Shown piece after piece: positions 4,157 through 62,340 of a stretch of 64,000 bases of DNA (positions are counted from its first letter, which is position 1; each line of letters opens with the position of its first letter). Under the pieces are notes generated by a model that searched no databases, was not told the DNA's origin, and saw nothing but the letters and a program-made list of their open reading frames with translations. The stretch comes from Botryllus schlosseri (lineage: Eukaryota): the NCBI GenBank assembly GCA_051294905.1, contig CM119372.1, positions 37,140,001-37,204,000 on the forward strand, in the 5' to 3' direction. Made by a program: the position numbers and the translations under genes.

Positions 4157-4480
4157 GTGTTGGCTCAATCCTACGAATCATCTCACCGATATCCAAAGCG
4201 TGGTATGTAAATCAATACTAGATCTGTTAGCTACGCGAGTGCTTGCTTTCATCGCAATCAAAAGCTAGTCAGCCACCAAATCACTTCAGCGTGGACAGAT
4301 TTTGAATTTGGTCAATGGGTATTAATTTGTGATAAACGGACTAGTTGATAACTTGCCACTGTAGGAACTCGTATCCTACTGAGTAGTTAACTAACTAGGT
4401 AACTCTCATTGCGATACTGAGAACGCCAGACAATTAATCTTTAATCACAACAACAATAATCATCAACATGCTATCTGACT

Positions 4481-7400
4481 ATAGATAACTAACCTACGGA
4501 TAGATGGGCAACACGTGATTCACGGTCGAGAGCCCAGATGCCGTTAGATTTGTTGTCGCTTCATAGCATGAAGCGGCAGGTTATTGGCCAGATTGATGTT
4601 TGGTGCAGATAGGATATAGGGCAATCACAACAGGTTATTTAGTGATACAGTACACAGGCACTGGCGCGGCTATCATTGCATTAATATCAGGAGGATATTT
4701 CATGAGCAAAATAAGTCATGATATTCACTCTATTATTAATTGGTTTCAATATTGATTTCGGCTGAGATTTCCTTGAACTATTTTGGTTTGTATAATCATT
4801 AGAGCGGCCATGTTTTGATATGTCAAAATCGTAGTAGTACGAAAGTTGCCTATTTCTGAGCCAAAAACGTTTTTTGATGCTTAACTACTTCGTTAGGACA
4901 GCTATAGTTCCTACCAGAAATGAAGATCGAAGAAGTTGGCTACAATTTTAACATTATGTGGTCAAAAAAAACGCCCTAATAATCAGAGATAGGTTTTAGT
5001 ATGTATTGCTAAATAAAGAGAATATGTTTTCATAATCCAGGCATAATTAATATGGAATAATTATATTTCGAATTACTGACTGAGGATATCATGTGTGCGT
5101 AGGGCTTGGCACAATGATTCTCGAATCTGAACATAATATGATTGCGGTGGAGGATGCATCAACGAGTCACAACTGGAGCTATTTCTCTTCGAAGTCAGCT
5201 GTCATAAAATAATCCAGTTTTTGGGCAACATAGTCTTCTTGCTTTGCATGTTGATACTGCCTAGCCATGCAAAGATTCCTCCTATGTAAAAAAGAGGTAA
5301 ACCAACACTATGGCTGAAACCTTGACGTTGGTGTGTTGGCTTTTGTCCAATATCAGCTGGCAGTCTACTTCGCAATGGTGACATATCAAACTGACACATA
5401 TATCCTCAGTATTTATTATTTTCAATATTTAATATTATCTTATATATATATTATTCAATCGACTTTCGCTTGGGTATTGGGGATGCATCGTAGGGCTTTG
5501 CCGATCTTTTCATTGCCTTTGATTGGGTGACATGATGGATGTCGTACGCTAGCTGTGGAATATCCGGATTTGTCCGTCTTCTCGCCATTTGTCTCTGCAA
5601 TCACAATCCCAGTCAATAATCTAACGCCTTATTACGTTTAAGTATCTTACTAAATTTCCAAAAAATGCCTCTAGCACATCTTGCGTGAACGTTCCAAGGG
5701 CCAACTTGGGCATTTCTTCGATGAGACGATCGCATAGACCCACCATATTCCGTGACGTGAAAATTAGGCCCAGGTTATTGCTGGGACAAAGAAGATTCCA
5801 TTAGATGGACTCTTTACTGATCCAAATCCGTAGGCTCCTGAAAGGCCAATTTTTCTATGCGCCGATCCTCAGCATCTCCTCAAGGTAGCTTTACCTGATA
5901 ATTTTAGATCATATTATATTGTAGTACGGTGAGCACTACCAGAGGTGGTCAAAGTAGTCAAGAAAGCTACTCAAGTAGAAGTACAAGTAGCGATGAAAAA
6001 ATCTACTCAAGTATGAGTAGAAGTACTTCTTCCATAAGCAACCTAAAACTACTTGGAGTAGAATTAGAATTGACTGACTTTAAAGCTACTCAAGTTAGTA
6101 GTTTTGAAAACTATCGTAATTCGTTCGCATGGACTGCCAAAAGCTATGAGGAAGGAGTAAAGAGCTTGATTCATATTGATGCATCCCAGGCGGGGTCAAT
6201 TTTTGACAGAATAGGCAGTCGTCCATATCATGGGATGTAAATGATAGTATTGATATGGAATGTGCTACTAATTCTTTGTTTACTTGAACACCCCGTTTTA
6301 GAGAATATCATGGCATGGTGCCCTCCCCCATATTATAAGGCGCCTAGTTTAGTCAATGAGCATTGGTGACAAGTTGTGTCGGATACGGCTTCAACACTTT
6401 GCGCGATTAGTAAACGTTAATTAAAAATATGGCAGTTCGTATGTTTTCAAAATGTTTACACAATAACTGAAACAATGACAATAATGCCCGTAATTTGGAG
6501 AAAAATACAAAAAAAGCGGTAATATATAATGTGTCGTTTGTCCAGAAAGTTTCAACGGTGGTCTGCTAGAACAGGTCTAAGTCAAACGTTAAAAAAAGTA
6601 AAGGTTCACTTTTCCGGATTTGGACACGTCATGTTACTGCTAGATTGCGAAACGATAGTATCAAATGTTATGGTGGGGGGGGGTATACTTACTGTGATAC
6701 TTTCGTTTAAACATATTTGTCACGCCGTATCTACTGCGCGCGAAGCGCAACGAAAATTTTGGGTATTACTTGACTTATGAAAATTAAATGTTAGTAGGCC
6801 TACCATGTGAAAACAGACCCGAAATTCCATACCCGATATATTCTTATATCCTAACAGCCACACGGAACTCTCTATTCATCGAAAGCAGAGGGATCTCGAT
6901 ACATGAACATGAATGGGAGAGGGCAAGATATATTATGGACGGATATCCAAAAACTGTTTGTCGTGGAGTCGCGCAGCCTGTCACTTTACCAGTCCGGATT
7001 TACATTGGCCCATGTTGATTTAAATCCACGATCTAAAGTAGGCAAAAAATATGTTTGACACCTCTGGTCTAGATCAGTGCTTTTCAACCGGTTGGCTGCG
7101 GCCCACTTGGGCCGCGAAGACATTTTAAGAAACGATGATAGATCCCAATTTGTAGATCTGTTCTCTACCACGAAGACCAAGTCGAAAAATGTCAATATTT
7201 TCAACGTTTTCTTCCACTTTTGGATGATGATTCTGGAACATGTAATTGACGGGCCTGCGGGGCTCGTGCACTTTCGGACTAAACTCAATACAGCCTTATG
7301 GAGAAAATGTGATTTTGGTCCCAAAGTGCATGAGTCCCACAGCTATTCGCTCTATTGTCTGTAGTGGTTTGAACGTTTGTCGCGAAAGGGTGTGTGGTGG

Positions 7401-9334
7401 GCCACGCAATGAAATTTAGATGGAAAGTGGGACGCGAACTGAAATAGGTTGAGAAGCACTGGTATAGATGATGCGCTTGCAATCATTCACTGGGCTGAAA
7501 TGTGACCGTTTTTCATGCCAGATGAATGTCAGTTTGGCTACAGGTGTATTGAGTCACAAAGTTGGAAATTGTTTGAAAGGGATGGGAGCAACCGGTACAT
7601 CTGATTTTGTTCTGATGATGGAAAGGTATGAGTAACGAATTTTCACTTATATAACAAGGGGCTTGATTTTATGACCTAAAACAGATGGTTCAATAATCAA
7701 TGTCGTCACATGCCGCATTAGTTATCCGATATGCAGCCTGGACGATGAAAGAATTGCATGGCTGGGTGAATTTTCGGATCGATTATTGAGTTGGAAGGTC
7801 AGTTCCTCATAGTTATTATTCGAGGTATTTTCGGGTCATCATGTAATTTAGAAATATGCTTCAAGTCGTGGTGAGCCAAAACGAATGATGGCAAAACCCA
7901 CAATGGAAGGCCTAATTTTCACGTCACGGAATATGGTGGGTCTATGCGATCGTCTCATCGAAGAAATGCCCAAGTTGGCCCTTGGAACGTTCGCATTTTT
8001 CAGTCGAGCTCAGCTGCGCGCGCCTCTTCAGATGCACTGTCTAAGAATTATCAAGGTGAAATACACTAAGAAAAAGTTGATCAAGTCCCTGCATTAATTC
8101 GATTTTTAGTACGCATTGTATCAATATTTTTAAAAAGTTTATTTAGACTCTCGCGGGCCGCACAGAACGGTGTTGCGGGCAGCATGCGGCCCGCGGGCCG
8201 TAGTTTGCCCACCCCTGCGTTAGATTATTGACTGGGATTGTGATTGCAGAGACAAATGGGGAGAAGACGGACAAATCCGGATATTTCACAGCTAGCATAC
8301 GACATCCATCATGTCACCCAATCAAAGGCAATGAAAAGATCGGCAAAGCCCTACGATGCATCCCCAATACATAATATAATATTAAATATCGAAAATAATA
8401 AATACTGAGGATATATGTGTCAGTTTGATATGTCACCATTGCGAAGTGGACTGCCAGCTGATATTGGACAAAAGCCAACACACCAACGTCAAGGTTTCAG
8501 CCATAGTGTTGGTTTACCTCTTTTTTACATAGGAGGAATCTTTGCATGGCTAGGCAGTATCAACATGCAAAGCAAGAAGACTATGTTGCCCAAAAACTGG
8601 ATTATTTTATGACAGCTGACTTTGAAGTGAAATAGCTCCAGTCGTGACTCGTTGATGTATCCTCCACCGCAATCATATTATGTTCAGATTCGAGAATCAT
8701 TGTGCCAAGCCCTACGCACACATGATATCCTCAGTCAGTAATTCGAAATATAATTATTCCATATCAATTATGACTGGATTATGACAAACATATTGTCTTT
8801 ATTATAGCAATACATACTAAAACCTATCTCTGATTATTAGGGCGTTTTTTTGACCACATAATGTTAAAATTGTAGCCAACTTCTTCGATCTTCATTTCTG
8901 GTAGGAACTATAGCTGTCCTAACGAAGTAGTTAAGCATCAAAAAACGTTTTTGGCTCAGAAATAGGCAACTTTCGTACTACTACGATTTTGACATATCAA
9001 AACATGGCCGCTCTAATGATTATACAAACCAAAATAGTTCAAGGAAATCTCAGCCGAAATCAATATTGAAACCAATTAATAATAGAGTGAATATCATGAC
9101 TTATTTTGCTCATGAAATATCCTCCTGATATTAATGCAATGATAGCCGCGCCAGTGCCTGTGTGCTGTATCACTAAATAACCTGTTGTGATTGCCCTATA
9201 TCCTATCTGCACCAAACATCAATCTGGCCAATAACCTGCCGCTTCATGCTATGAAGCGACAACAAATCTGACGGCATCTGGGTTCTCGACCGTGAATCAC
9301 GTGTTGCCCATCTATCCGTAGGTTAGTTATCTAT
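4481..9334. mobile_element. Large foldback element with ~1.2-kb inverted arms (Mutator/Foldback-like)
   Basis: 4481-~5627 is the near-identical reverse complement of ~8217-9334, and 5687-5770 pairs with 7909-7992. Flanking direct repeat tatctgact / aatctgact (9 bp, 1 mismatch). Confidence 0.8.
7075..7461. mobile_element. hAT (Buster-like) MITE nested in foldback spacer
   Basis: TIRs cagtgcttttcaacc / ggttgagaagcactg; TSD gtctagat / gtatagat with central TA. Confidence 0.85.
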
Positions 9335-12164
9335 AATCTGACTGGCACCTTTTGAGCGTGAAAGTCAGAGCGGTACGAATGTATCGGAATGCTAATATTC
9401 TAGCGGTAACGCGCCAGGAATAAACATAACACACTTGCGAGTCGCGATCGCTTGGATATAGTTTGTAGGTGTATTATGTGCAGCTACACCACTTTGATTT
9501 ATATGGGAGCAATACTCCACGATGAAAAGATGCGTGGCTCGCGACTCGGCGTGGGCAATATCGAGTACATGATTGATTAATTTCTGAATGGAGTATTATA
9601 GGCTCCGATTATGACTCATTGTGGCGTCATAAATGTGTGGAAGACGTGGGAACTTCGAATTAGTAACTTTCAGGCGACCGCGAAGAATATAATTACAGTG
9701 CTACATCTCGTGAAAGATACTTTGGTATATCTCAACCATATCCATTTCATTGTACTTTGTGATAATGGTGAGGGTTGATCACGAGATTACAGATACGCCC
9801 TTTCCACAAACGCACGTCGCTTTGTACTACAGGTTCGTATTATCAATTATGACCAATATAAATTTAAGGGCTTTCATATTGAAAGATAATATCGAAACTA
9901 TAATCCACGATTTTAAATTAAAACTTAATAGCAAGTGGTGTACAATCGGAGTCCACAAAACATCAAACCCTATTACTTGACAAGAATCATAGGAAGAAAT
10001 ACTAGATCCAAATTCGAGAACTCGGATCATTGTGACTAATAGGTTCCTGACCCCTTATCTAAATGCTGAAATGTTCGCAGCCGGAAACGGATCAAAGTCG
10101 TTCTTTGGTGGAGAATCGCAGAATCACAATGGTTTACACATAAATCACGAATATGAACATTTGTTTGCACCATCCTAGAACCTAGACCTAATTGACATAT
10201 CGGAAAGAAAATGCAAATGCAAATTAACATGAATGCTCTTCATCGATGCGGCACGCAAGTTCGCCTGTGACTTACCATGTTCGTGCCATTCGACCGTCTC
10301 GTGGGCAGCATACTCGTGTCGATCGGCCCCTTTCATTGAGAATTCAGGAAATTATAAGAAAATTCCAGCCCAATACCCGACGGAAGCGACTCGGATGCAG
10401 AATCGATAATTTGATTATTATTAGAATAATAATAATCAACATATATATTGACTTCAACAAATTGACAGGCATCTGCTACATTGGATATTCGATAAAATAA
10501 CTTTGTCACCAATCAATCTTCGAAAATGAATCTTCTCGGCCTGAAACTCTCCATCTGGATGTACCATCCGTAATCGCATCAAGGAAACTCATCATCAGGC
10601 AAGATTAAAGAGAATCGATCGAGTTGTACAGCACGCTAAATTTCATGCTCCTACACATGCTAATCCTGATAGGCATGATGGTATTACCACACTTGCAGTG
10701 ATTGATTCTAAATTAATGAGACTATACACAGTCGGACTATATATTGACTACATACAGGCTCAGGTCGGATATATATGGAGAGTTCGCCGTGCCTCTCTTC
10801 TTAGAATTTATATGGAATTGAATGATATTAGGCGAGGAACGCGTTTGCGTTGTTTTGACTAGTTGTGAGGCACAATTGGAACAGTATGCATACGCTAGTA
10901 GTGCGCTAATTCAATATTACTTTGACAATTCCTTTATCAGACTTTTTGTATGTTTGAGTATATGAAATGTTATCATCATATCCTAGTACTTTATCATGAT
11001 ATATATACATATATATTCTATTATACTTTGGTATACCGACGGCGAAATTATATTGGATCATTTTCTCAATATTTCTTTTTATTATCACGGCTTCTTTTTT
11101 TTACTAATCCCCGCATCCCAGAATCACAGTTTCGGCTAGTTGAGCAGTTCGGTTATTGTGCTATTGACGTCCCACCCTAGTGTGACCCAGATCCTCAATA
11201 TCAAGATATTTATGTTAGATATGGCCATTGTTAAGCTTTGTGGTGACCCATCTGATGTTTCTTAACCGTTTCCATAGCGAGGACCCCCGAATGTTTTTGA
11301 ATGGTTGCACGGTTTCCCAACCGAAAACTTTGGGAAGCTGATGAGCAGAAGTCAGCATTTCCGCCCAGTCCTAATCATATTGCGGTTAGGTCTATCAGTT
11401 GCCTGTAAAGCTACCTGATTACTAATTAATGTTATCTAATTTCATGGTTACCCGTGGAAAGTGCTGAAAGTAAGGACTTAAGTCAAATATAAAGACACTC
11501 GTTTTAAAGACCAATGGATTTAGAAAGTTGTAATTTTAACATTGCCTTTCATTTGATCTCTGGTCAAGAACCCAAGCCCACAACGTTGACGTGGACAAAT
11601 GCCACGGATGCATCAACATATTTAGATACCGCTTTATAGAATCGCATTGTGACAGCCTGCGACCATGCACACTATAAAAATGTCTACGCAATTGCATTTC
11701 ATATGTAGGCCTATACCGTATATTTATTCGTCATATACCCAACGACTGCAATAGGTAAACGAATACCAGCAGTGAAAAATGGTGTTGAAAGCAAAATATG
11801 TATTCTCACGAGTTTGTAATGATTAAACCCTTGAAAAGTAACGCCTTTTTTCATAGCTGGTCTTTAGTATCCGACAAACAGGTTTTATTCCAAAAATACT
11901 ATTCATTGCGAAGTTTATTTACGTTTATTTATATTTGAATGGTTTCCCTTCTTGGGTGTGCCTACCCAATGATCGGGTATGTGGTTCTTTAGTATTTCAA
12001 TTCTACATGCATCATTATTCTCTGAATATTTATATACTTTCAACGTTGAAAACTATGAACCGCTCTCTCTTTATATATATATATATATTTATTTCTCTCT
12101 TATCAAGCAGTTGCGGCACAAGAAATGAATGATATATATATCTGACTACAAAGGATTCGTGGCG

Positions 12165-12356
12165 ATGTCGCTAATGACTGATTCTAGTAACGAAACTGTC
12201 GACTCTCGTATCAAGATGGCGTTAAATTGGTCAGAACGTAACATAGAACCGGCGCAGCCTTACGTGTTAATTCCCGTGTGCGTTTACATGACCACCGTTG
12301 CAGCGATGGCTGTCACTACAAACGCGATTTTCATCGTGACTTCGTTCAGGAGCAAG
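12165..12356 (+). CDS. Opsin A exon 1 (N-terminus and TM1)
   Basis: MSLMTDSSNETVDSRIKMALNWSERNIEPAQPYVLIPVCVYMTTVAAMAVTTNAIFIVTSFRSK|gtgag. The start could alternatively be 12129 or 12174. Strongly similar to 57257-57439. Confidence 0.88.
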
Positions 12357-12686
12357 GTGAGCAAAACGTGTTGTCTATGGTTCAGTGTTTTAATTTTTTT
12401 CAGACCTGAGGGCCATGGCCCACTCGGGGGTCACAGGAGCAAATTCCAAATTATTCAGTTGGTTCCTCAGATTTGTAGCGTCAAATTTTGTTCGCGGTAA
12501 TCGGTTGACTCTCATTAGGGATCTTGGTCCTGACTCTTGTTAGATAGAGTTAGAGAGCTTGCTGATTTTGTCAGCCATTAAATACAGAGGGCGATATTAA
12601 TAACCATACAAGTCATCAAGTTATAGCATCTGAAATTGCCAAACTTGCATTAGATCGATCGTCTTCATAAGGAAACCCCATATGAC

Positions 12687-13429: not shown

Positions 13430-13990
13430 AGGGTTGTGACCAGGTCACAAAGCTCCCAGTCACAAGTCAATCTAACTTTTATAGTTTTGACTCGAGTCAA
13501 GTCGAGTCATTTTCAATTCACCACCGAGTCAAGTCCGAGTCCAAGTCATCGAGCAGAGGTTCGAGTCCGAGTCATGGTATTATGACTCGACTCCGAGTCC
13601 AAGTCATTGTGTTGACTGACTGCTCAGTTTACAGCTAAAGTCTTGTTAAACCCACTTATTGTAACTCTGTTTAGCGATATCGAATGGTTCGCATTAATAA
13701 TATAATAACTTTCCTCACTTTCAACAGTTTCTTGTCGCATTTTCAGGTACCAGTACCAATAGACGAAATCTCAATAGGGTGGTTACTTTACTGTTCTTCG
13801 AAATTACAATGAAATGTCGGTCTTGACCGTCTGAGTCTCGAGTCATATGACTTGGTGCGAGTCCTGCGCAATGACTCAAGTCGAGTAAATACACAGACTG
13901 ACTCGAGTCGAGTCGAGTCATTTCGTATTTGAGAAAATGACCTGAGTCAAGTCGAGTCATCAGAAAACCGTTACAATTACAATACTGGGG
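13430..13990. mobile_element. GACTCGAGTC-rich MITE family copy (boundaries approximate)
   Basis: Subterminal gactcgagtc/gagtcaagtc arrays shared with 18920-20060, 20710-23055, 30110-30320 and 32832-33807. Confidence 0.65.
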
Positions 13991-14118
13991 GAGCCACAGT
14001 ACAAACAAACAACGCATTATTACGTGATAATAAGATGTTAAAGCAACTCTTAATAATTTTTCGTCGCGGGCCGGATATAGTCGGTAATAAAGTCGTTTCG
14101 ATGTTTTCTGGAATTTAG

Positions 14119-14281
14119 ACTCTACAGAAGCCAATACATTTCATGTTGCGTTCATTGGCGATAGCAGATACGTGTTCCGCATTTATCGAAGGTTTCATGG
14201 GTGTCATTACGACTGCAGTAGGTTACTACTACCTGGGGCGGATTGGTTGTAACATTCAAGGATTTATGATTGGGACATTCG
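14119..14281 (+). CDS. Opsin A exon 2 (TM2-TM3 start; E90, C110, Q113)
   Basis: tttag|TLQKPIHFMLRSLAIADTCSAFIEGFMGVITTAVGYYYLGRIGCNIQGFMIGTFG|gtaag. Phase-1 intron in G121, as in vertebrate rhodopsin intron 1. Confidence 0.93.
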
Positions 14282-15269
14282 GTAAGATACTATGATTTAT
14301 TTTTGTCATAATAGCTGTGTTACGGGGATTTCATATACAGGGCATGGTCTCGATTATAGGGTTTGTATTGGTTGTCCGACATTTAGGTGTGCAACACAGT
14401 GACGCACGACACTCAAGTCCGGGATTTCATAACCTAAAACTAGTCTCAACCCTATAATCCAGGGGAGTTCATGTGTTCAACCTTTTTGTTATTCACGACC
14501 GCTTCCGATTACATAGCGGGCAGGCGGAATGGACCAAGTGATCCCGGGGATTCACCGATTAAATTGCTAGGTTGCCTAAAGAAAACGCTACACACCAAAT
14601 TTAGCTCAATTTTCACCATAGTCGAAGCCGACGAAGAGCCTATTGAAATTTATTACTCAATATAAAAAATTGGAAGATTTTTTTGTAATTTTACTCTAAA
14701 CCTCATGAAATTGTTGAGTTGTCTGCGAAAACGATGCAAATCAAATTCAATGCAATTCCAACCACAGATGCGAAGTTATTTCATCTTTTCAATAATAATT
14801 ATGAATTTTCCCACCGTCAATGATATTCTTGCAAATTCAAAACTTTCAACTGCTATAACTTCGCTTCTACGAGTTGGTATTGAACTAAAATTGTTTTGCA
14901 TCGTTTTTTTTTATACAACTTGACAATTATATAGGGTTGACAGTAAACATCTCTTTGATAATCCCGGTTGTGCGAAAAAGTGTCGAGACGGCAGGTTTCG
15001 TTGCGTTGGGAGCAGCTGTTCACACTTCCATTTTTGTGCCTCGGAGCACTGGCGTAGCAGCATGTGCTGCCGCCCCTGGCTCTCGTCGCCGCCCCTCCCG
15101 TAAGTAGACCGCAGCAAATTTCGACATAGATTCATGTTCAAGCAACCTTGTCAATAAAAATAATTACAAACAATATGCCGCGTCTCAGCCTTGCCGTCTC
15201 AACGTTAATAAGGCCGAAAATAATAAAGACAAGAAATAGCGAACGATTGTATTGTGCAAATAGAAAATC

Positions 15270-20101: not shown

Positions 20102-20206
20102 GCATTGCTAATTTGACATTGATATGTCTGCTGTCAATATCAAGATATCTCGTAATATGTAAACCTTTTGGACACTATGAACTGAAGATGAGCCATGCAA
20201 AATACG
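20102..20206 (+). CDS. Opsin A exon 3 (TM3-ICL2)
   Basis: ttttcccag|(G)IANLTLICLLSISRYLVICKPFGHYELKMSHAKY(A)|gtgag. Corresponds to rhodopsin [23 protein letters not shown]. Phases 1/1 are compatible with the neighbouring exons. Confidence 0.92.
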
Positions 20207-27999: not shown

Positions 28000-28220
28000 C
28001 TGTGATCGCCTCCTGGATTTGGTCATTGATTTGGAATGTCACTCAAGAAATCAACGACGGATATGACCTGGAAGGATTCGGGACGCATTGCGCGCCGGTA
28101 TGGAATACAGAGCGGCCTACGTCGAGAACATACTTGATTCTGCTCGTTAGCTTTTGTTATTTCGGCAATATCATCATATTGCTGATATGCTACATAAAGA
28201 TATGGATGGCGATGAAAAAG
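28000..28220 (+). CDS. Opsin A exon 4 (TM4-ECL2-TM5; E181, C187)
   Basis: (A)VIASWIWSLIWNVTQEINDGYDLEGFGTHCAPVWNTERPTSRTYLILLVSFCYFGNIIILLICYIKIWMAMKK|gtaatt. Contains the YxxEGxxxxCxPxW motif. Phase-0 intron after residue 232, as in rhodopsin intron 3. Confidence 0.93.
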
Positions 28221-29019: not shown

Positions 29020-29421
29020 TAGAGTTGCCATACGTTTTCCTTTAGGAGGATTTATCATCCTTTTCCATGTTTTTGAAAATGTCCTCCGAGGACGCCCAAA
29101 TGTCCTCCTTTTTACGATTTTGTCCTCTTTTTGAAGAATTTTGGTCAAATCTACTGTGAAATTGGAGTGAGATACCGTAAATCAGCACCGAAGCAACCGG
29201 GCAATTTGGGAGCCGAGCCGGTAAAATGACAAAACCACCTATAAACGTGAAGTAAAAAACTGTATTTTGGGCGATGGGCGCAAAAGTTGACCTTTTTTTT
29301 AGTCAACTGACCACGAAGTGATAAAAATTTACTTTTTCGTCTAAATTTTTCTCCGGAATTCTGGGTTTGAAAATTTTGAAAAAGTGTCCTCTTTTTCCGA
29401 TTCCAAATTATGGTAACCCTA
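29020..29421. mobile_element. TAGGGTTACCA-family MITE (degenerate left end)
   Basis: tagagttgccata ... tatggtaacccta; homologous to 3833-4156 and 30654-30980. Confidence 0.75.
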
Positions 29422-29774: not shown

Positions 29775-29915
29775 ACAAGACTGCACTCCACAACAGCGCA
29801 GCAAGCTGAGAGAGCAGTTACCACGACTATTATCTATATCGTCGTTGGATTTGTATTCTGTTGGACTCCGTACGCAGGTTTATCCATATACAATCTCGCT
29901 CGACCAGGATTTCCG
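29775..29915 (+). CDS. Opsin A exon 5 (ICL3-TM6)
   Basis: acag|TRLHSTTAQQAERAVTTTIIYIVVGFVFCWTPYAGLSIYNLARPGFP|gtaaa; CWxPY motif. Confidence 0.92.
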
Positions 29916-29969
29916 GTAAAATTGACGATGGTGACGGGGCCCATAAAATTACGAATATGTTTCTTTAAG

Positions 29970-30059
29970 GTGAACCCATACATGAAAACCGTATGTGTCT
30001 ACGTGGCAAAAACTTCCACCATACTCAATCCGATAATCTATGCAATCAAGAACCGACAG
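29970..30059 (+). CDS. Opsin A exon 6 (TM7 with K296, NPxxY, NRQ)
   Basis: ttctttaag|VNPYMKTVCVYVAKTSTILNPIIYAIKNRQ|gtata. K296 codon AAA at 30009-30011. Intron after Q312, as in rhodopsin intron 4. Confidence 0.95.
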
Positions 30060-30653
30060 GTATAATATATGTTTATTCCAAGCTTTTTAAAATAGGAATA
30101 ACTTGCCCTGCAGGCACACATAGTTCGAACCTTCGATTGACGAGTAACCTTGAGTATTGCACTTTTTGACTCGAGTGGAATCAAGACAATCGGTCTTTCA
30201 GGGTGAGTCGAGTCAAGTCAAGTCACTCGATTGTTGGAGGTAACTCGAGTAAACTAAAGTCCATTCCGGCACAACCTAAGTCAAATTGCATTTTCAAGTA
30301 CGAGACACGATTAGGTCAATGTGCTTTGTGCTTTGCTAGCTGTTTGTAATACAGATTGAGTCGCCATTTATTTTGAATCGAGGAACGAATATCAAATATA
30401 ATATCCCTACAAAAAGGCGTTGTATCGTCCATGCATACGTAGAACTGCTAAACTCGGTAAGTAGCATTATAGACAAAATACAGAATAGAATACAAAGACG
30501 CAGAAACTTGAAACGAAAAGATATGATGCTATAAACTACCCACATACACACCCGTGGGATACAATTCAAGCCTGGCCCTATTTTTGACCAGTAATTTGAA
30601 CCTATAAACTGTCTTCGAATTCGAATTCAATAATAAAACAGGTTTGGTAAAGG

Positions 30654-30980
30654 TAGGGTTACCATAAGTCCTCATTTAGGAGGATTTGTCTTCCTTTTTC
30701 AGGTTTTTGAAAATGTCATCCGAGGACGCCTAAATGTCCTCCATTTTGAGATTTTGTTGTTAAATGTAGGGCAAATTCGACTGAAATGCAGTAGATCCGC
30801 ACTGAAGTGACGATCCCGCGGCTATTTTGGGAGCTGAGTCGGAAATTTGACCTTTTTTCTAATCAACCACCTGATAACGTGAGGAGAGATTTACCATTTC
30901 AAGATTTTCCTCCGGTATTCTAAGTTTGTATGTTTTGAAATAGTGTCCTCTTTTCCCGATTCCAAAATATGGTAACCCTA
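30654..30980. mobile_element. TAGGGTTACCA-family hAT MITE
   Basis: 13-bp TIRs; exact TSD ggtaaagg. Confidence 0.9.
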
Positions 30981-31868
30981 GGTAAAGGTGAGCACTAGGC
31001 ATGGGGAGCAGTCTATAGAACAGATATAGACAATTTGCTGTTAGGTTACTACACTACTATAGTTTATTGACGTAAGCTGTAAGCTCTGATCACTTCGCTT
31101 GTGCTCATATCATTTGCGATATAACAATGGAGACTGAGTAAAACACATAATCATTCAATGATCGCATGGTCGCTCCGACATGTCATACCAGCGTATCGCG
31201 AACGATACGACATATGCACGATACAGCTATTTTTATCGACACCTACTACATGATAACTTAGAATTGGCGACTCATAAATTTTGCTCCGAGTTTTATCCCA
31301 GCACCGGACGTCACCTGATTATTATCTAAGACATCGTTTTAGCCGATAAAACGCAAGCAAAAGAAACTTTAAATCACAGGTTTTTAGAATTGAAATTCTC
31401 ACAGATCTTTCACGAGAGATCCATGGATAACTTGTATCGAGAGGTGGACAGTAACTAAACGGTATTTTACTCCTCTTGCTTGGTACTTCGGCACAACTTT
31501 TCGTTTTATGCGCCCCTAACTGTTTCTATAAAGTTACTCAAAGTTGTGATTCAATGTGAATCGTGCAGAAATGTCCTAGTATAACTTCTTATCTCATTAG
31601 GAAACAAATTGGCATCGGATGAATTAACAAAAGCATACTTTTGTCAGGAAACAAGCGACATGATGGTCATTCTGTTATGAAACTTCCTCTGGTAACGAGC
31701 CACAGTTCTAGACTCTTCGCGGTGAACGATCCCCATTCTTCTTCGAAATGACAGCGCCAGTCAGCGGCTAGTTATCTTTTCATTGCTTTGCTAATTTCAC
31801 ACATTTCTAATCAACACAAGAGGCCAACTGAACAGGGCTAAAAAGTCAATGGTCGGTACACGTTAGAT

Positions 31869-35145: not shown

Positions 35146-35232
35146 ATACGCAGAGAAATGATTGGGAGCATTAGATCGAATAACGCAAAGCCAGAAGAGA
35201 ACGAAATGGTTCGGATCGATCGCGGCCAGTAG
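35146..35232 (+). CDS. Opsin A probable exon 7 (helix 8 and C-tail, stop)
   Basis: ttatcctcacag|IRREMIGSIRSNNAKPEENEMVRIDRGQ*. Gives NRQ|IRREM against rhodopsin NKQ|FRNCM. Total CDS 999 nt, 332 aa. Confidence 0.7.
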   Translation: MRREMIGSIRSNNAKPEENEMVRIDRGQ

Positions 35233-36948: not shown

Positions 36949-38946
36949 ATAAGAATAACAATTTGACTTGATTACTGAAATTTTTAAAGTTTACTTCAAT
37001 CTCGCCATTTTCATTAGGGGCAGGTTGCTCCCCGGATTATGAATGTATTTAATAGTTTTACTGTGAATAATGAATATAATATAAGTATTGGTTAATTTGA
37101 CCTGCGGGCTACTCTACTATAGGATTAAGTGTTTGATGATATAATGAAATACTTTACTTTTCACCTGAACATTTTTCAATGAATCTCTATAATAATATGA
37201 AATCCTTAGCAAACTTTATTCTTCGATTGTCCCTTTCGAATTCATATTAACACCTTTCAAAAGATGTATGGATCGTTCGTTTTGGTATTAGTATTTATAC
37301 CGTGATGATGTGATCGGAAAAATAGGGACCGAGGACTACTCAGCACAGCTTTTTATGGGGAAATATGCAATAACTAGTTCTAAGTATATTACAAACATTG
37401 CGGTTATGTTGTTCCCAAGTTTCACCCCTATATGAGATAGAAAATTTCTTGACGGACTGGATGATTTGTATATGAAGCAACTATAGATGCTGATGTTGTG
37501 ATAATATAGTGTTCTAACGGTGAATTGAGCTGGGGTATTAGAAGAGATTGTCTACATAGCCAGATAATGTTATTTCTTCATATTGCTTCATCAGTGGTTC
37601 TCAACCTTTGTGACCTCATCGACAGGTAAAACTTCAAAACAAATTTTGCGAAACAGTGAGCTTTGAAAAATCGATTTAATTAAGACAAATATATACAGCC
37701 CAAAAATAATATATTGGAAACTTCATTTACCGCTGTCTTTTTATATTACATATTTATACGTGGTTATACTGAAGTTTTTGCAAGGCGAAGCTCACGTAGT
37801 TAGGGCCTTGGAATGCGGCAATGAATGCGCACCTGACACTTGTACCTCCCAACTACACGGTTAACGATTTTCTTCGTGATCAAAAGTATACACTAGGAGT
37901 GTCCCACCCAACTTGGGTCCCGGGCCGGATTCTAAAGTTTTGGTCGCTAGCGGGTCGGACCAGTCAATGAATACAGATTACTCCAAATCTTTACCTTTGT
38001 TTTTCAAGCGAATGCCATCCACGCCAAGCAGACTAGTATTAGACATTATATCATGGAAAATGTGAGCTCTGTTCGAGCAATACCGTTATTCGCGAACATT
38101 CGAATTGGCGCAAACACGATGCCTCACCGCTGGAATAGAGTTATAAAAATTTCCGAACTGAATGTGCAATTTTTGCCTTCTCAGAATGTAGTGTCAAACT
38201 GTCAATGTCACCAACTTGTTTCTGATGGTTGCTCGAGTGAGAACTCAACACTACCGACAGATGGTTGTGGCCATTGAACATGTTCGACATTTACGTTCTT
38301 GTGGGATTATAATTATTTACGCCAAAACATTTATTGGTAAATTTTCAACTTCTTTTTTAAATGTACCGAATATACCGGATAATTCGATACTTTTTCAATT
38401 TACTCAGAATGGCCTCGCCGGATGAGAGTATGTGGGCCGGATGATTGACACCCCTGGTATTCACAATTCATATCCGTGACAACCCGTTATTTATATCAGT
38501 CATTAGGAATATGTACTTATATCCGATACCCATCCTCTTTAATAGAACCTATTCACTACATCGCATTGTGTCCAGTGTAGCTCATTGTACAATGTACATT
38601 ACTTGTCCTGAGTGAATTAAAATACGGAAGCCCCAATTATTCCGATTAAAGCCCGCGTAAATCCCTGTTTTAGAGGGGTCTGTGGTCGCAGCACTGCGGC
38701 GAGATCGCTTCCTGGCCGTTTGCGCCGCCCCTCGCCTTGCTCACTGAACCATGGCCATAATAAAACTAACCAAGGGTATCGCTGTATGGTACGGTAACGG
38801 GTTGTCGTTAATTAATGGTATTATTGGTATTCCATTAATTTGATTTTGATTGTTCTGTATCTTTTGAAATAATTTCTAATAAATGCGACTTTGCTGTTTG
38901 GTATAGCCTCTGTTATACTGTCAAGTGTCGCTTAATTGCACTGTTG

Positions 38947-39046
38947 NNNNNNNNNNNNNNNNNNNNNNNNNNNNNNNNNNNNNNNNNNNNNNNNNNNNNN
39001 NNNNNNNNNNNNNNNNNNNNNNNNNNNNNNNNNNNNNNNNNNNNNN
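38947..39046. other. Assembly gap (100 N)
   Basis: Run of exactly 100 N, typical of a scaffold join of unknown size. Confidence 0.99.
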
Positions 39047-50446: not shown

Positions 50447-53364
50447 CGCTACAGTCTCACGAATTCCAGAAGCGAGGAATCCTTTTTAATTTTGCATTAA
50501 TGTAACATTTGAAAAGTAACGCCATGCTATGATCAGCTATTTTACACCATAACTGACCTTAAATATCCCGCAAACGCTTTGCTTAACCAAATGCTAAATG
50601 AACATTATTTACGTTTATAAAGAATTGCATGGTTTTTCATCTCAAATGTGCCAATCTAGGGCACAAACGCGATGACTGCTTCTGTGGTACGGTAGTGGTT
50701 CTCAAACTGGCGGAGCGAAAGCACCTAATTGGCGTGCCTGAGAGAAATGATGTTTCTTGATCTCGGAATGAATTTAATGTGAGCTGAAACTTCAAACTTT
50801 CAACAACGGCAATAATCATATTTATATTAGGATTCTAATAACATAATTGCGTTCGTGCGTGCTTTTATGGTCTGCCTGTTCAACATCTGTGCAAAGTGAT
50901 TAGAAAGACAGGAGGGTATGGAAGAATATGATATTTCCATCAAATATCATGTTGTATGCCATTCAATGTGTCTTTTGAATAGGAGAAACAAGGATTAATA
51001 TCGAAGTGGTGGCTTACAACGTCTAAGTATGAACAGGCCTCTAATAGTCTACACTCCTGGGAAACGCATTTCATGGCTGCCCAAAATTTACTCAATTGAA
51101 TTCTCTTGCCTTCAAGAAAATTGTTTGCGCCGTGAAGTAGTTCCAAGTTAGCATGGCATGCGGCCTTTGTCATTTTTTTTTGGTTTGGCCTAGGTTTTTT
51201 GAAGCTATAGGCTCATGTGGTATAGTTGAAGGTATTAGACACGAAAATTAGTAAAATATCCATATGCCACGAACTACCATTGCACATGATTATTTTTGAT
51301 AGCCAAATCAACTAAAAATTATCTGCGCTCGGAACGATCTACATCCAGCTCGTAATTAGTGTTTTTTATATAGTCTGGAGTTCATATTTGAGAAGTCTCT
51401 AAACAGGAAGAATCAGGAAGATCGCTGGCTATAGAACCGTGGATGAAGAACGCGCCGAATGGCTTTGTCCTTGCAACCTGACTAACCCCGAAACATGTGC
51501 CGACGATGTTTGTAACATGTTGTCATGTAGGCTATGCAGTGGTGTATTGTAATTTATTTAAAATTAATTGAGCGTACTTCTAGATCGTCAGCTCCCCGTT
51601 ACAATACTTCCATCACGCTACCTCGAGTTATGTTTCACAAAATGTTTTGAACTATGTATTTTATCCCGCAGCGAACTGCGTGTCGAAATCGAAGAAAGAG
51701 GCACTGTATCACTTTTAAGATTGAGAGCCCTTTGTACAGTAAAGATGCTTCAAATTTTCGTTGGTCAAAATGAATACAGAAGTATAATTTTATTTGAGAT
51801 CTGGGAGTGGGGGAGCTAGAGCTAGGAAATTTCCGAAAGGGGGCGCTGAAGGAAAAATGGTTAAGAACCACTGGACTAAATAATGCAAAGGCAGAAGAGG
51901 ATGAAATGGTTAGCTTCGCTTCGAAGAAGGCCAGTAATACTTGAAAAAAAACCATTTCGTCTTCAGTATCCATTCCGGCAACAATGTCCTGCAGACTATG
52001 ATGAATTATATTCCCCTGTTTGGTCGATGTCCCATGAGTTATCGCAATTACGACGAACAATTGATCTATGGCATGTGATTATATGGCTGCTTGGAAGACA
52101 ATACGCCGAATTCGTTGGAACGCTTGAATATTCTTTATCGGAAGGAGGCGTATAATGATACAAACAAATGACGACGCCTGCAGTCGCTGCTGGTGGCTTT
52201 TGTGCCCGGAAAAGTCTCCGTCCTGGCACTTGGGTGCTCTGCTTGTACAATTGGAAATTCTCAAATGAACAGAGCAACCAGACTAGCCAGACAATACAAG
52301 GGAGCTATGTCAATGGTTTATCTTGGATCCCCCTCGCCAGCTATTCCGATATTACAGCAAGTTAATCAGCTGCTTCCATACTCAACATTTGTCTTTGCAC
52401 TTGCCAACTAGTCTACATAGGCGTGCGCAGATGTACTAGGGTTCAGATCTTGCGATGGGTTCTCATGCTAGGGACCTGACGTCACTAGTATATTCGTAAT
52501 CAAAGCTGTTACTTTTATCCGCCCAAGACCCGCCATCCTACAATACGACAAGCATGATCCTGAAAATGATATTATTTCCAAAGTAATAGAGGATGATACT
52601 AAATCATTTTAATAAAGTTACTGTTACAGAAATAGCACAGCAAATCGCCACACCATTGCTGTTGCGTTTCCAATCAACATATCGCTGTGAATGTGGGTTT
52701 CAACAATGTTTCAACTTAATGTTTCAACCAGCAAGTAGACATTGTCAGAGCAAAAACAAGCTGAACCATAACGTTAACTGAATATGTGTTGTTATCATGT
52801 TTATTGTGTGCATTGTATTTATATCATTTTATCATCCTAACTATACCAGGCGCTGTGTAAACCTGTTTAATAATTGAGATAACGTTTTACAATTGCTTCA
52901 AACTTTTGTGAAATAGTAGATCCGCTGATTTCCCTAAATTTTAGAAAGGGGCCATGGTGCAAAAAACGGCTGGCAACCCGTAACCTAATATCTTCGATTC
53001 TTAGCTTCGCACAGATGTACTCTCAGGCGTACAGCGTAAAATGGCGTCGACAATCCCCCTTTCATCTACATTCGTCGAGTTTGAGTAAGTGCAATTGCCG
53101 TTCCCAAGGGGAGTGACTCTGATTCGAATAAGATCCTATGATCATTAGTATCGTAGTATATCGATCTTTGAAAAGTAATTTTCCCGGCCTCGAACTTATC
53201 ATCTGGTTACACCCTCCGATCATACCTATCACATCAACGCATCAGCCAAGATTACAGCATCGATCGAGTCTTACATCACTCTCGATTTCATTCTCAAACC
53301 TAACCTTGGAGGAATAAGTATTAGCAGACTTGCGGAGATTAATTCTAAACCTATTAACCTAGAG

Positions 53365-57256: not shown

Positions 57257-57439
57257 ATGGCTGTTGCAAGTAACGAAACGTACAACTCTCGTATCAAGAT
57301 AGCGCTGAATTGGTCGGAACGTTTCATAGAACCTGCTCAGCCTTCTGTGTTAAATGCTCTGTGCGTTTACATGACCTTTGTTTCTGTGCTGGCTGTTACT
57401 GCGAACGCTGTTTTCATCATGACATCGTTCAGGAGCAAG
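57257..57439 (+). CDS. Opsin C exon 1 (close paralog of opsin A); remaining exons not found in window
   Basis: MAVASNETYNSRIKIALNWSERFIEPAQPSVLNALCVYMTFVSVLAVTANAVFIMTSFRSK|gtgagc. Same donor context as opsin A. Upstream 57030-57250 is homologous to 11930-12160. Confidence 0.85.
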
Positions 57440-60789: not shown

Positions 60790-62340
60790 ACAAGTAAATA
60801 CTACAAATACATTGCAGGCTTATATGAGCAGAGGAAGGGAATATGGATAATGAATTTGATCACAGAAACCAATGGAAAGAATTTGAGAGATGAATTGTAC
60901 CAACAGATGAGACAAAACCTTAATGAAGCAAAATTCCGCAATATAACTTTCGAACCCACAAGACGTTCAACGACACATCTCATTGTTAAAGGCATACCAT
61001 GCGAATCCAAAGAGGAGAATATAGTCGAACAATTGAGTGAATACGGTTTCGAGACGGTTATTAACCAGACCAGGGTCTTCAAAAGAAACCCGAACTGGTA
61101 TAATGGTTTCATTAACATCTGGGTGGAAGAATTCAGAAATAAATTAAAAAACCTACCATATAAAAGTTGATCGGTATGTATGCCTTATCAGAACAGCTGA
61201 AGACGCTTATCAGAAGCGATGTTACAACTGCAATCTGACGGGACATATTGTAACGGAATGCCCAAATGAAAAATTGGAATGGACGATGTGCAAACGACTG
61301 GGTCATCGTGCAGACGAGTGCAGGTCCAAACTTCGACGAGACAAGCCCGGGTATACGACCGAGCATGAAAATGCTGAAATAGCCAACAATGAAACGGTAG
61401 GTACGTTTGACCCGAAAACACCCCGGAACGACGACATGAAAAGGAACGAAACAAGGCAGAAGAGCCAGGCAATTATCAAAACATACTCCTTAACTGACGC
61501 CGCATTCGGAAATGCAGACACAACACAGGAGGAAACCGAGCCAGCGCAAGCCGTGTTGGAAAACTACAAAACTGACAAACAAAGGGAAATACAGACGGCC
61601 GGAAAGCCAGCCATCAAAAAGCCGTCGGATACGAAACCTCATAAACAGGCAAACGGCTGTGAACAGACTATGAAACATGGACACAGAGATGGAGTGACTA
61701 CCAAAGGAACTGCAAGCAGTCAAGCGAAAAAGCCGAATAACAATAAGAAGAACCAACGCAACAATTCTCCTCGACTGACATGATGGCGAATCTATTGAAA
61801 CTAAAGTCGATTAACGTAAAAGGATTTCAAAGAGAATGCAAAATCTGTATCAAAATATTTATAAACCTGCATATGGCTATCGACGCTACACCCGACGAAA
61901 CTATGCGCAACGTATATGATTGACCACAAGATCCGACTATAATGCAAGCTATCCGATAGTTCGCGATAATTTGTATTTATCAACCCACAAAACCCAACCA
62001 TTTCACCCACAACCTATCCCAAGCATCCTAACCTCCCATCCCATCCCATAATCCCAACCCTTCCTCAACCCATATCACTCCCCCACTAATACCCACCCAA
62101 ATTATCCACCAATCATCATAAACGATCAAATTACGACTACAAAGACTTAATATGAACATTAGACGCATACGAACGCCAATTAACGGCGGCTTCTACTACG
62201 ACTTCAACTACAAATTCGTCTTCGACAACGACTGCGATTAGATGACCCGATGATGGAGACGAGCCAAACCGAAAGAATTGCATTCATGATATTATTGATG
62301 TTTTATGTATACAATATACATAATTGTATAAAAATCACAA
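60790..62340 (+). mobile_element. Internally deleted non-LTR retrotransposon (L1/Tx1-like ORF1 plus ORF2 start)
   Basis: Broken ORF1 with TTHLIVKGIP...EQLSEYG...WYNG and a degenerate zinc knuckle (MCKRLGHRADEC). The ORF1 stop overlaps an ATG (ATGA, 61780-61783) that begins MMANLLKLKSINVKGF, resembling an APE endonuclease N-terminus. C-rich 3' region follows. Confidence 0.6.

Follow-up and report, generated by a model that had tools for sequence, protein, structure and literature searches.

A Glu90/Gln113 residue pair in two opsin paralogs of Botryllus schlosseri and its possible role at the Schiff base

The opsin A gene and its paralogs

The window (the whole stretch of 64,000 nucleotides of the Botryllus schlosseri genome analyzed here, C2:37140001-37204000) contains an opsin gene, opsin A, on the plus strand at 12165-35232. 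On the evidence of its open reading frames, its splice signals and comparison with its paralogs, the gene is intact and comprises seven exons for a product of 332 amino acids; a model of the same length, proposed in an earlier sequence-only reading of this DNA, was thereby reproduced, with the last exon placed at 35146-35232. Exon 1 (12165-12356) is an open reading frame followed by a GT donor at 12357, and encodes helix 1, Asn55 and an N-terminus that carries the glycosylation motif NET; a further in-frame ATG lies upstream at 12129, and homologs of this exon were found by tblastn in paralogs B, C, D and E. Exon 2 (14119-14281) is bordered by AG at 14117-14118 and GT at 14282-14283, ends in phase 1 within the Gly121 codon and covers helix 2, extracellular loop 1 and the start of helix 3, including Asp83, Glu90, Cys110 (14248-14250) and Gln113. 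The remainder of helix 3, including Ile122, and intracellular loop 2 are encoded by exon 3 (20102-20206). Exon 4 (28000-28220) encodes helix 4, in which Thr-Gln replaces the Pro170/Pro171 pair, extracellular loop 2 with Glu181, His186 (28086-28088) and Cys187 (28089-28091), and helix 5.

The end of intracellular loop 3 and helix 6, with the Cys264-Trp265-x-Pro-Tyr268 motif, lie in exon 5a (29775-29915), and helix 7, with Lys296, NPIIY and Asn-Arg-Gln at 310-312, lies in exon 5b (29970-30059), which is followed by a GT donor at 30060. These two exons are separated by a mini-intron of 54 nt (29916-29969, GT..AG), which is in frame and stop-free and would add 18 residues if retained; its excision brings back the 33-residue spacing from Cys264 to Lys296. 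Gaps between tblastn matches place a mini-intron at the same position in the paralogs (56 nt in C, 72 nt in E and approximately 80-86 nt in B and D), with two of these lengths not divisible by three; the modelled intron ends in C and E are GT and AG. The last exon (35146-35232), preceded by a pyrimidine-rich acceptor, encodes helix 8 and a 28-residue tail (IRREMIG...) and ends with the stop codon; it was matched by the last exon of paralog C in tblastn (E = 1e-6), and a scan for AG followed by Phe313 gave no candidate for it. Copies of one repeat flank exon 5 at 29020-29421 and 30651-30985, one of which mimics a last exon at 30795; the candidate at this position was dropped because it is located inside the repeat, which is found at several other places. 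Position 29396 is joined to 30960 by many reads originating elsewhere in the genome.

A search with exon 2 against the 495.5-Mb assembly identified six loci. Besides opsin A, these include paralog C, which is encoded on the same strand, with exon 1 at the right end of the window (57257-57439, plus strand) and exon 2 beginning 44 bases past the window end (window-equivalent positions 64044-64206), and paralog B, which is arranged head-to-head with A at the left window edge, with exons 1 (2589-2407) and 2 (1405-1243) at 1243-2589 on the minus strand and its other exons to the left of the window (C2:37134652-37138760). Paralog D is located on contig 8, and paralogs E and F are located on contig 16. 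Members A to E have identical exon sizes (163, 105, 221, 141 and 90 nt) and phases, and A and C each possess seven intact, stop-free exons with canonical splice sites. In paralog B, exon 4 is interrupted by an in-frame stop and exon 2 is followed by a GC donor; this paralog is 92% identical to the intact gene D (dS 0.14), which points to a recent inter-chromosomal duplication; B is probably a young pseudogene copy of D on another chromosome. For F (C16:14467984-14472070, loci L026 and L027), exons 2 to 5a were found and the helix-7 exon was absent within approximately 10 kb beyond exon 5a, so that this member is possibly incomplete or a pseudogene. At positions 134-136, where Glu/Asp-Arg-Tyr is found in most class A receptors, all six members of the family have SRY (in opsin A, the Ser134 codon is at 20140-20142). 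The E/DRY motif is likewise described as missing from the coral ASO-II opsins (PMC12401545).

Several other features were noted around these genes. A large inverted repeat (4474-5627 and 8217-9341) lies between the divergent genes B and A and consists of three blocks of 497, 421 and 154 nt that are 97-99% complementary; it could be a foldback element or the trace of an inverted duplication. Between A and C, positions 51879-51911 contain a short remnant (NNAKAEEDEMV) similar to the last opsin exon, with no other exon relics found near it, and a run of N at approximately 38940-39040 marks either a gap in the assembly or sequence that was withheld. Intron 1 of paralog C contains an open reading frame of 211 amino acids (61148-61783) with CCHC zinc-knuckle-like motifs, of the retroelement gag type as judged by eye.

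The assembled sequence was compared with contigs of other sequencing runs. A contig of run X5, which has a different sample and study code, matches positions 13938-14573 with no differences and no gaps, and further X5 contigs match exons 1, 3, 4 and 5 of opsin A without a difference; the animal sequenced in X5 may be the one used for the assembly. The sequence-only reading had allowed that the unusual codons in exon 2 were assembly errors, and the X5 contig is identical across the whole of this exon, which speaks against such an error. With respect to expression, the bulk RNA run X14, of which approximately 6% was read, gave a depth of 0 to 0.4 in the 667-base bins containing exons; run X11 covers the introns too and is therefore uninformative on splicing, and no RNA run was listed as containing the stretch. 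In run X8, which is of unspecified kind, one contig (record 23) matches the gene precisely up to the exon 4 donor (28220) and then continues for 17 letters that do not fit the intron, and another (record 24) starts at the exon 5a acceptor (29774/29775); these contig ends hint at spliced RNA of opsin A.

Residues at the Schiff base and the class of the opsin family

In opsin A, site 90 is GAA (Glu, 14188-14190) and site 113 is CAA (Gln, 14257-14259), both in frame in exon 2 and both where the sequence-only reading had placed them. Its other assignments were also confirmed: paralog B has Gly90 (GGC, 1336-1334) and Glu113 (GAA, 1267-1265) on the minus strand, and Glu181 (GAA, 28071-28073) and Lys296 (AAA, 30009-30011) are intact in A. 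The same reading had left the numbering to be confirmed with chordate c-opsins. MAFFT alignments of spliced opsin A with fish rhodopsin (P0049), LWS opsin (P0079) and VA-long opsin (P0098) are gapless between Asn55 and Gly121 and assign Glu to site 90 and Gln to site 113. Ile89-Gly90-Gly91 of the VA opsin corresponds to the arrangement in the Gly90 paralogs and ties the register to that of the vertebrate opsins. HMMER aligned exon 2 with bovine rhodopsin chains (query 2-50 on chain 68-116) at an offset that is equal at the start and the finish, with two compensating gaps, one per side, that put the opsin A Glu opposite Gly89. The gapless fit of exon 2 to bovine rhodopsin that had been claimed is thus reproduced by MAFFT with the vertebrate opsins, but not by HMMER. 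We consider the sequence numbering of opsin A sound and predict a structural register of either 89 or 90; the same ambiguity between 89 and 90 attaches to Asn87 of squid rhodopsin, as described in a paper on Drosophila Rh1 (PMC4571949). Asp83, Glu90 and Glu181 are the sole acids among the tabulated pocket sites, and opsin A also has Cys110, Cys187, Trp265, Tyr268 and NPIIY.

The Pfam family 7tm_1 matches four of the five opsin A exon peptides scanned: exon 5 with 35.9 bits against a cut-off of 30.5, and exons 2, 3 and 4 with 18-21 bits each, below the cut-off when taken alone; the exon 1 peptide gave no match. Spliced opsin A aligns with rhodopsin over its full length, and it has the marks of an animal (type II) opsin, namely the seven-helix GPCR fold, Lys296 in helix 7, the Cys110/Cys187 pair and NPIIY. 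Exon 2 gave 25 matches in the PDB, to bovine or human rhodopsins and to cone opsins, and the family profile of this exon (helix 2-3) gave a single match, the fish VA-long opsin (E = 2e-12). An exhaustive HMMER search with exon 5 returned 97 matches, the best being a mis-called 241-aa open reading frame of a close relative, on a 1-kb contig that covers helix 7 only; the 10 others that were examined and read as opsins were of the vertebrate type, with 34-52% identity over exon 5. No match was obtained in word-indexed protein searches with exon 2 or exon 4, and the ESM Atlas returned only generic GPCR clusters for exon 4. Of the sequence words in the exon 4-5 stretch, 6-12% occur in sequencing runs of three other organisms. 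The overall identity of opsin A to vertebrate opsins is 25-29%.

A maximum-likelihood tree of 11 rows unites the six family members in a clade (99/98) with F basal; the groups A+C (100/99) and B+D (100/99) and member E meet in an unresolved fork, and the nearest outgroup is a lizard non-visual opsin (81/86); the stem branch of A/C is long (0.48). Introns of opsin A fall at aligned positions 121, 232/233 and 312/313, which we take to be the intron positions of vertebrate visual opsin genes. At 310-312, A has NRQ and C has NSQ, both of which conform to the Asn-x-Gln motif associated with ciliary and vertebrate-type opsins (PMC4289182). Two marks of vertebrate-type opsins deviate in the family: Glu113 is present in B, D and E and replaced by Gln in A and C, and the E/DRY acid is replaced by Ser throughout. 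The layout of parietopsin and Q113-bistable (QB) opsin, a neutral residue at 113 with Glu181 and no further acid near the Schiff base, differs from that of opsin A by the presence of Glu90, and the marks of the box-jellyfish opsin JellyOp are also absent: A has Gly and C has Ser at site 94, both carry His at 186 and the helix-2 acid at 90, and by ancestry they belong to the vertebrate type. The motifs GCNIQGF, AFIEGF, ACIEGI and GYDLEG are absent from a published supplement listing the opsin sequences of three Branchiostoma species, and the amphioxus c-type opsins viewed (op2, op3 and op5) are unlike the present family and have Tyr at the aligned site 113. Vertebrate-type opsins are described as reported from vertebrates and tunicates only (PMC11893379). 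On sequence criteria, the opsin A family is assigned to this group, which includes visual and non-visual opsins.

Conservation and direction of the changes at sites 90 and 113

What is new here is that paralog C shares Glu90/Gln113 with A, and that the four other members have Gly90, three of them (B, D and E) with Glu113 and one (F) with Tyr113. Over 323 codons, A and C are 68% identical at the amino-acid level (dN 0.19, dS 0.63, dN/dS 0.30); opsin A is intact and under purifying selection. Identity between the two is higher at the listed retinal-pocket sites (32/35) than elsewhere (185/283, p = 0.001). Their codons differ synonymously at site 113 (CAA/CAG) and at site 186 (CAT/CAC), and the occurrence of the same pair in C with a synonymous change at 113 indicates that Glu90/Gln113 is more than a chance combination.

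Fixed differences between A/C and D/E occupy 39 of 300 columns and include the pocket sites 44, 90, 113, 186, 188 and 208; these A/C-specific changes are not enriched in the pocket (6/34 vs 33/266, p = 0.42). Site 186 is His in A and C and Asn in the paralogs with Glu113. A and C are further distinguished, near the Schiff base, by Ile89, Ala188, the loss of Pro291, Val294 and Thr297, and both proteins also lack Pro170 and Pro171.

As Gly90 is found in B, D, E and F, and in fish rhodopsin and VA opsin, Glu90 is interpreted as derived, by the single change GGA to GAA. At site 113, the direction is likely from Glu to Gln (GAA to CAA, one base), Glu113 being common to the vertebrate opsins and to paralogs B, D and E; an alternative route leading to Glu113 by way of Gln113 is also possible, because F has Tyr113 and the fork between A/C, B/D and E is unresolved. 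Whichever direction was taken at 113, the combined Glu90/Gln113 state is older than the duplication that separated A and C (dS of approximately 0.6). The proposal in the sequence-only reading that A lost the acid at 113 and gained one at 90 therefore stands as regards the gain, given Gly90 in the four other members, and as regards the absence of Glu113, whereas the direction of change at 113 is only likely. Its view that the change was private to A and followed a duplication from B has to be abandoned, because C carries the same pair, the pair predates the A/C split and B is a probable pseudogene copy.

Possible location of the counterion in opsins A and C

The location of the counterion decides the visible-light sensitivity of an opsin, the strength of its G-protein activation and its bistability, and the known displacements away from 181, to 113 in vertebrates and to 94 in jellyfish, are read as key steps in eye evolution. 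The established counterion sites are given in a 2025 paper as 94, 113 and 181 only, together with chloride in coral opsins (PMC12401545). In full-text literature searches, at the level of abstracts, no site-90 counterion was found for any animal opsin; among the papers listed for Glu90, the subjects were microbial rhodopsins (channelrhodopsins and their relatives) and one green cone pigment, and no animal opsin with a counterion at this site. The residues, their sequence numbering, their conservation in two paralogs and the integrity of the genes are direct observations; the Glu90/Gln113 pair itself is well established, and the mechanism proposed for it below is a hypothesis.

Both A and C have an acid on helix 2, one turn below site 94, together with an intact Glu181, a neutral residue at 113 and a basic one at 186. 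The reading that we favor, tentatively and just short of an even chance, is that Glu90 is the proximal Schiff-base counterion in A and C and that both are working retinal pigments. Glu90 would then provide the main negative charge stabilizing the protonated Schiff base at Lys296, Gln113 would serve as a neutral hydrogen-bond partner, His186 would keep Glu181 within the distal loop network, and the pigment would absorb visible light, probably blue to blue-green; in this model, the inferred elements are how Glu90 is oriented and how far it lies from the Schiff base, which groups are protonated and to which spectral class the pigment belongs. Glu90 is the residue most likely to bear the charge by analogy with bovine rhodopsin, in which the proximal Glu113, and not the distal Glu181, is the dark-state counterion. 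Several points count against this reading: the HMMER register places the Glu at site 89; Gln113 with intact Glu181 is a layout known to work in parietopsin and QB opsin; the fixed changes specific to A/C show no enrichment in the pocket; the RNA depth over the exon bins in run X14 is only 0 to 0.4; His is a weaker, pH-dependent substitute for the Arg186 of the jellyfish opsin; and the function of A and C may conceivably be unusual or reduced, in a family lacking the E/DRY acid and with Pro170, Pro171 and Pro291 lost.

An acid at site 90 has precedents among mutant pigments. In engineered rhodopsin, Asp90 was reportedly able to replace Glu113 as the counterion in the work of Rao, Cohen and Oprian in 1994. 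In the bovine G90D mutant, the Asp90 side chain is described as interacting with Lys296 and as sterically closer than Glu113, and both Asp90 and Glu113 are proposed to stabilize the Schiff base (PMC7496284). These pigments resemble A and C in the acid at helix-2 site 90, but they are disease or engineered mutants with Asp in a backbone that otherwise keeps Glu113, whereas the state in A and C is natural, involves Glu paired with Gln113, is found in two paralogs and is accompanied by Ile89, His186, Ala188 and the loss of Pro291. Within the vertebrate-type group, which includes the present family, VA opsin and the tunicate Ci-opsin1, the last of these is reported by Kojima et al. in 2017 to have the Glu113 and Glu181 pair. 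Paralogs B, D and E keep this pair, while A and C differ in having Gln for Glu113 and Glu for Gly90. At the equivalent site in squid rhodopsin, Asn87 has been proposed as a hydrogen-bond partner of the Schiff base (PMC4571949).

A natural counterion on helix 2 is described for JellyOp, the one opsin of this kind known, in which Glu94 has this role and Arg186, located between Glu94 and Glu181, restrains Glu181; without Arg186, Glu181 takes over, and Glu113 can substitute (PMC6004467). The likeness of A and C to this system lies in a helix-2 Glu one turn away (90 instead of 94), a retained Glu181 and a basic residue at 186 (His). JellyOp is a cnidopsin, however, with the acid at site 94, Arg at 186 and a function demonstrated by experiment, whereas A and C are known from sequence, and the resemblance is one of working principle only.

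The strongest competitor of a Glu90 counterion, although somewhat unlikely in our estimate, is that Glu181 is the counterion, as in parietopsin and ancestral-type pigments, and that Glu90 tunes the spectrum or the pKa, is possibly protonated in the dark, or shares a complex counterion. Glu181 is conserved in all five full family members and is described as the commonest counterion among animal opsins (PMC6513861), and the combination of Gln113 with a conserved Glu181 is documented in parietopsin and QB opsin, which are vertebrate-type non-visual opsins as well (PMC11893379). They differ from A and C in that no helix-2 acid is mentioned for them in the text of that source, and in that QB opsin is UV-sensitive (PMC11893379). 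In insects, moreover, the equivalent of bovine site 89/90 is a tuning site, at which Lys leads to UV sensitivity (PMC4571949). Against a role of this kind for Glu90 stand the fact that Glu113 was lost and Glu90 gained in one lineage, the presence of His186 at the jellyfish lock position, where it would hold Glu181 away, and the rule that the charge normally resides on the proximal acid, as in bovine rhodopsin, where Glu113 bears it even though Glu181 is there.

It appears improbable that A and C are UV pigments with an unprotonated Schiff base and no dark counterion, with Glu90 having its role in activation or at the photoproduct stage: protonation is favored by a buried carboxylate next to the Schiff base, and the jellyfish opsin turns UV-absorbing when its helix-2 acid is removed (PMC6004467), even though QB opsin, with Gln113 and Glu181, is both UV-sensitive and bistable (PMC11893379) and the E113Q substitution makes bovine rhodopsin UV-absorbing (PMC2726285). 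We give an equally small chance to the view that A and C are decaying or non-photoreceptive receptors in which Glu90/Gln113 is tolerated drift. Such decay would fit SRY in place of E/DRY, the prolines missing at 170, 171 and 291, the stem branch of 0.48, the pseudogene next to A and the lack of clear RNA support, but it sits poorly with the seven intact, stop-free exons and canonical splice sites of each gene, the dN/dS of 0.30 and 32 of 35 identical pocket sites, the retention of Lys296, Trp265, Tyr268, the disulfide cysteines and NPxxY, and the two X8 contigs that end or start exactly at exon borders.

If Glu90 is indeed the proximal counterion, opsins A and C would provide a chordate parallel to the Glu94/Arg186 system of the box jellyfish and a natural version of the G90D state that causes human night blindness, and would show how this configuration of human rhodopsin can be made to work. 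The wider claim, which we hold with less confidence, is that site 90 might be a fourth natural amino-acid counterion position, displaced from Glu113 within a vertebrate-type lineage, with His186 holding Glu181 aside. The natural Glu90/Gln113 genes stand beside Gly90/Glu113 sisters and thus offer a ready-made swap comparison.
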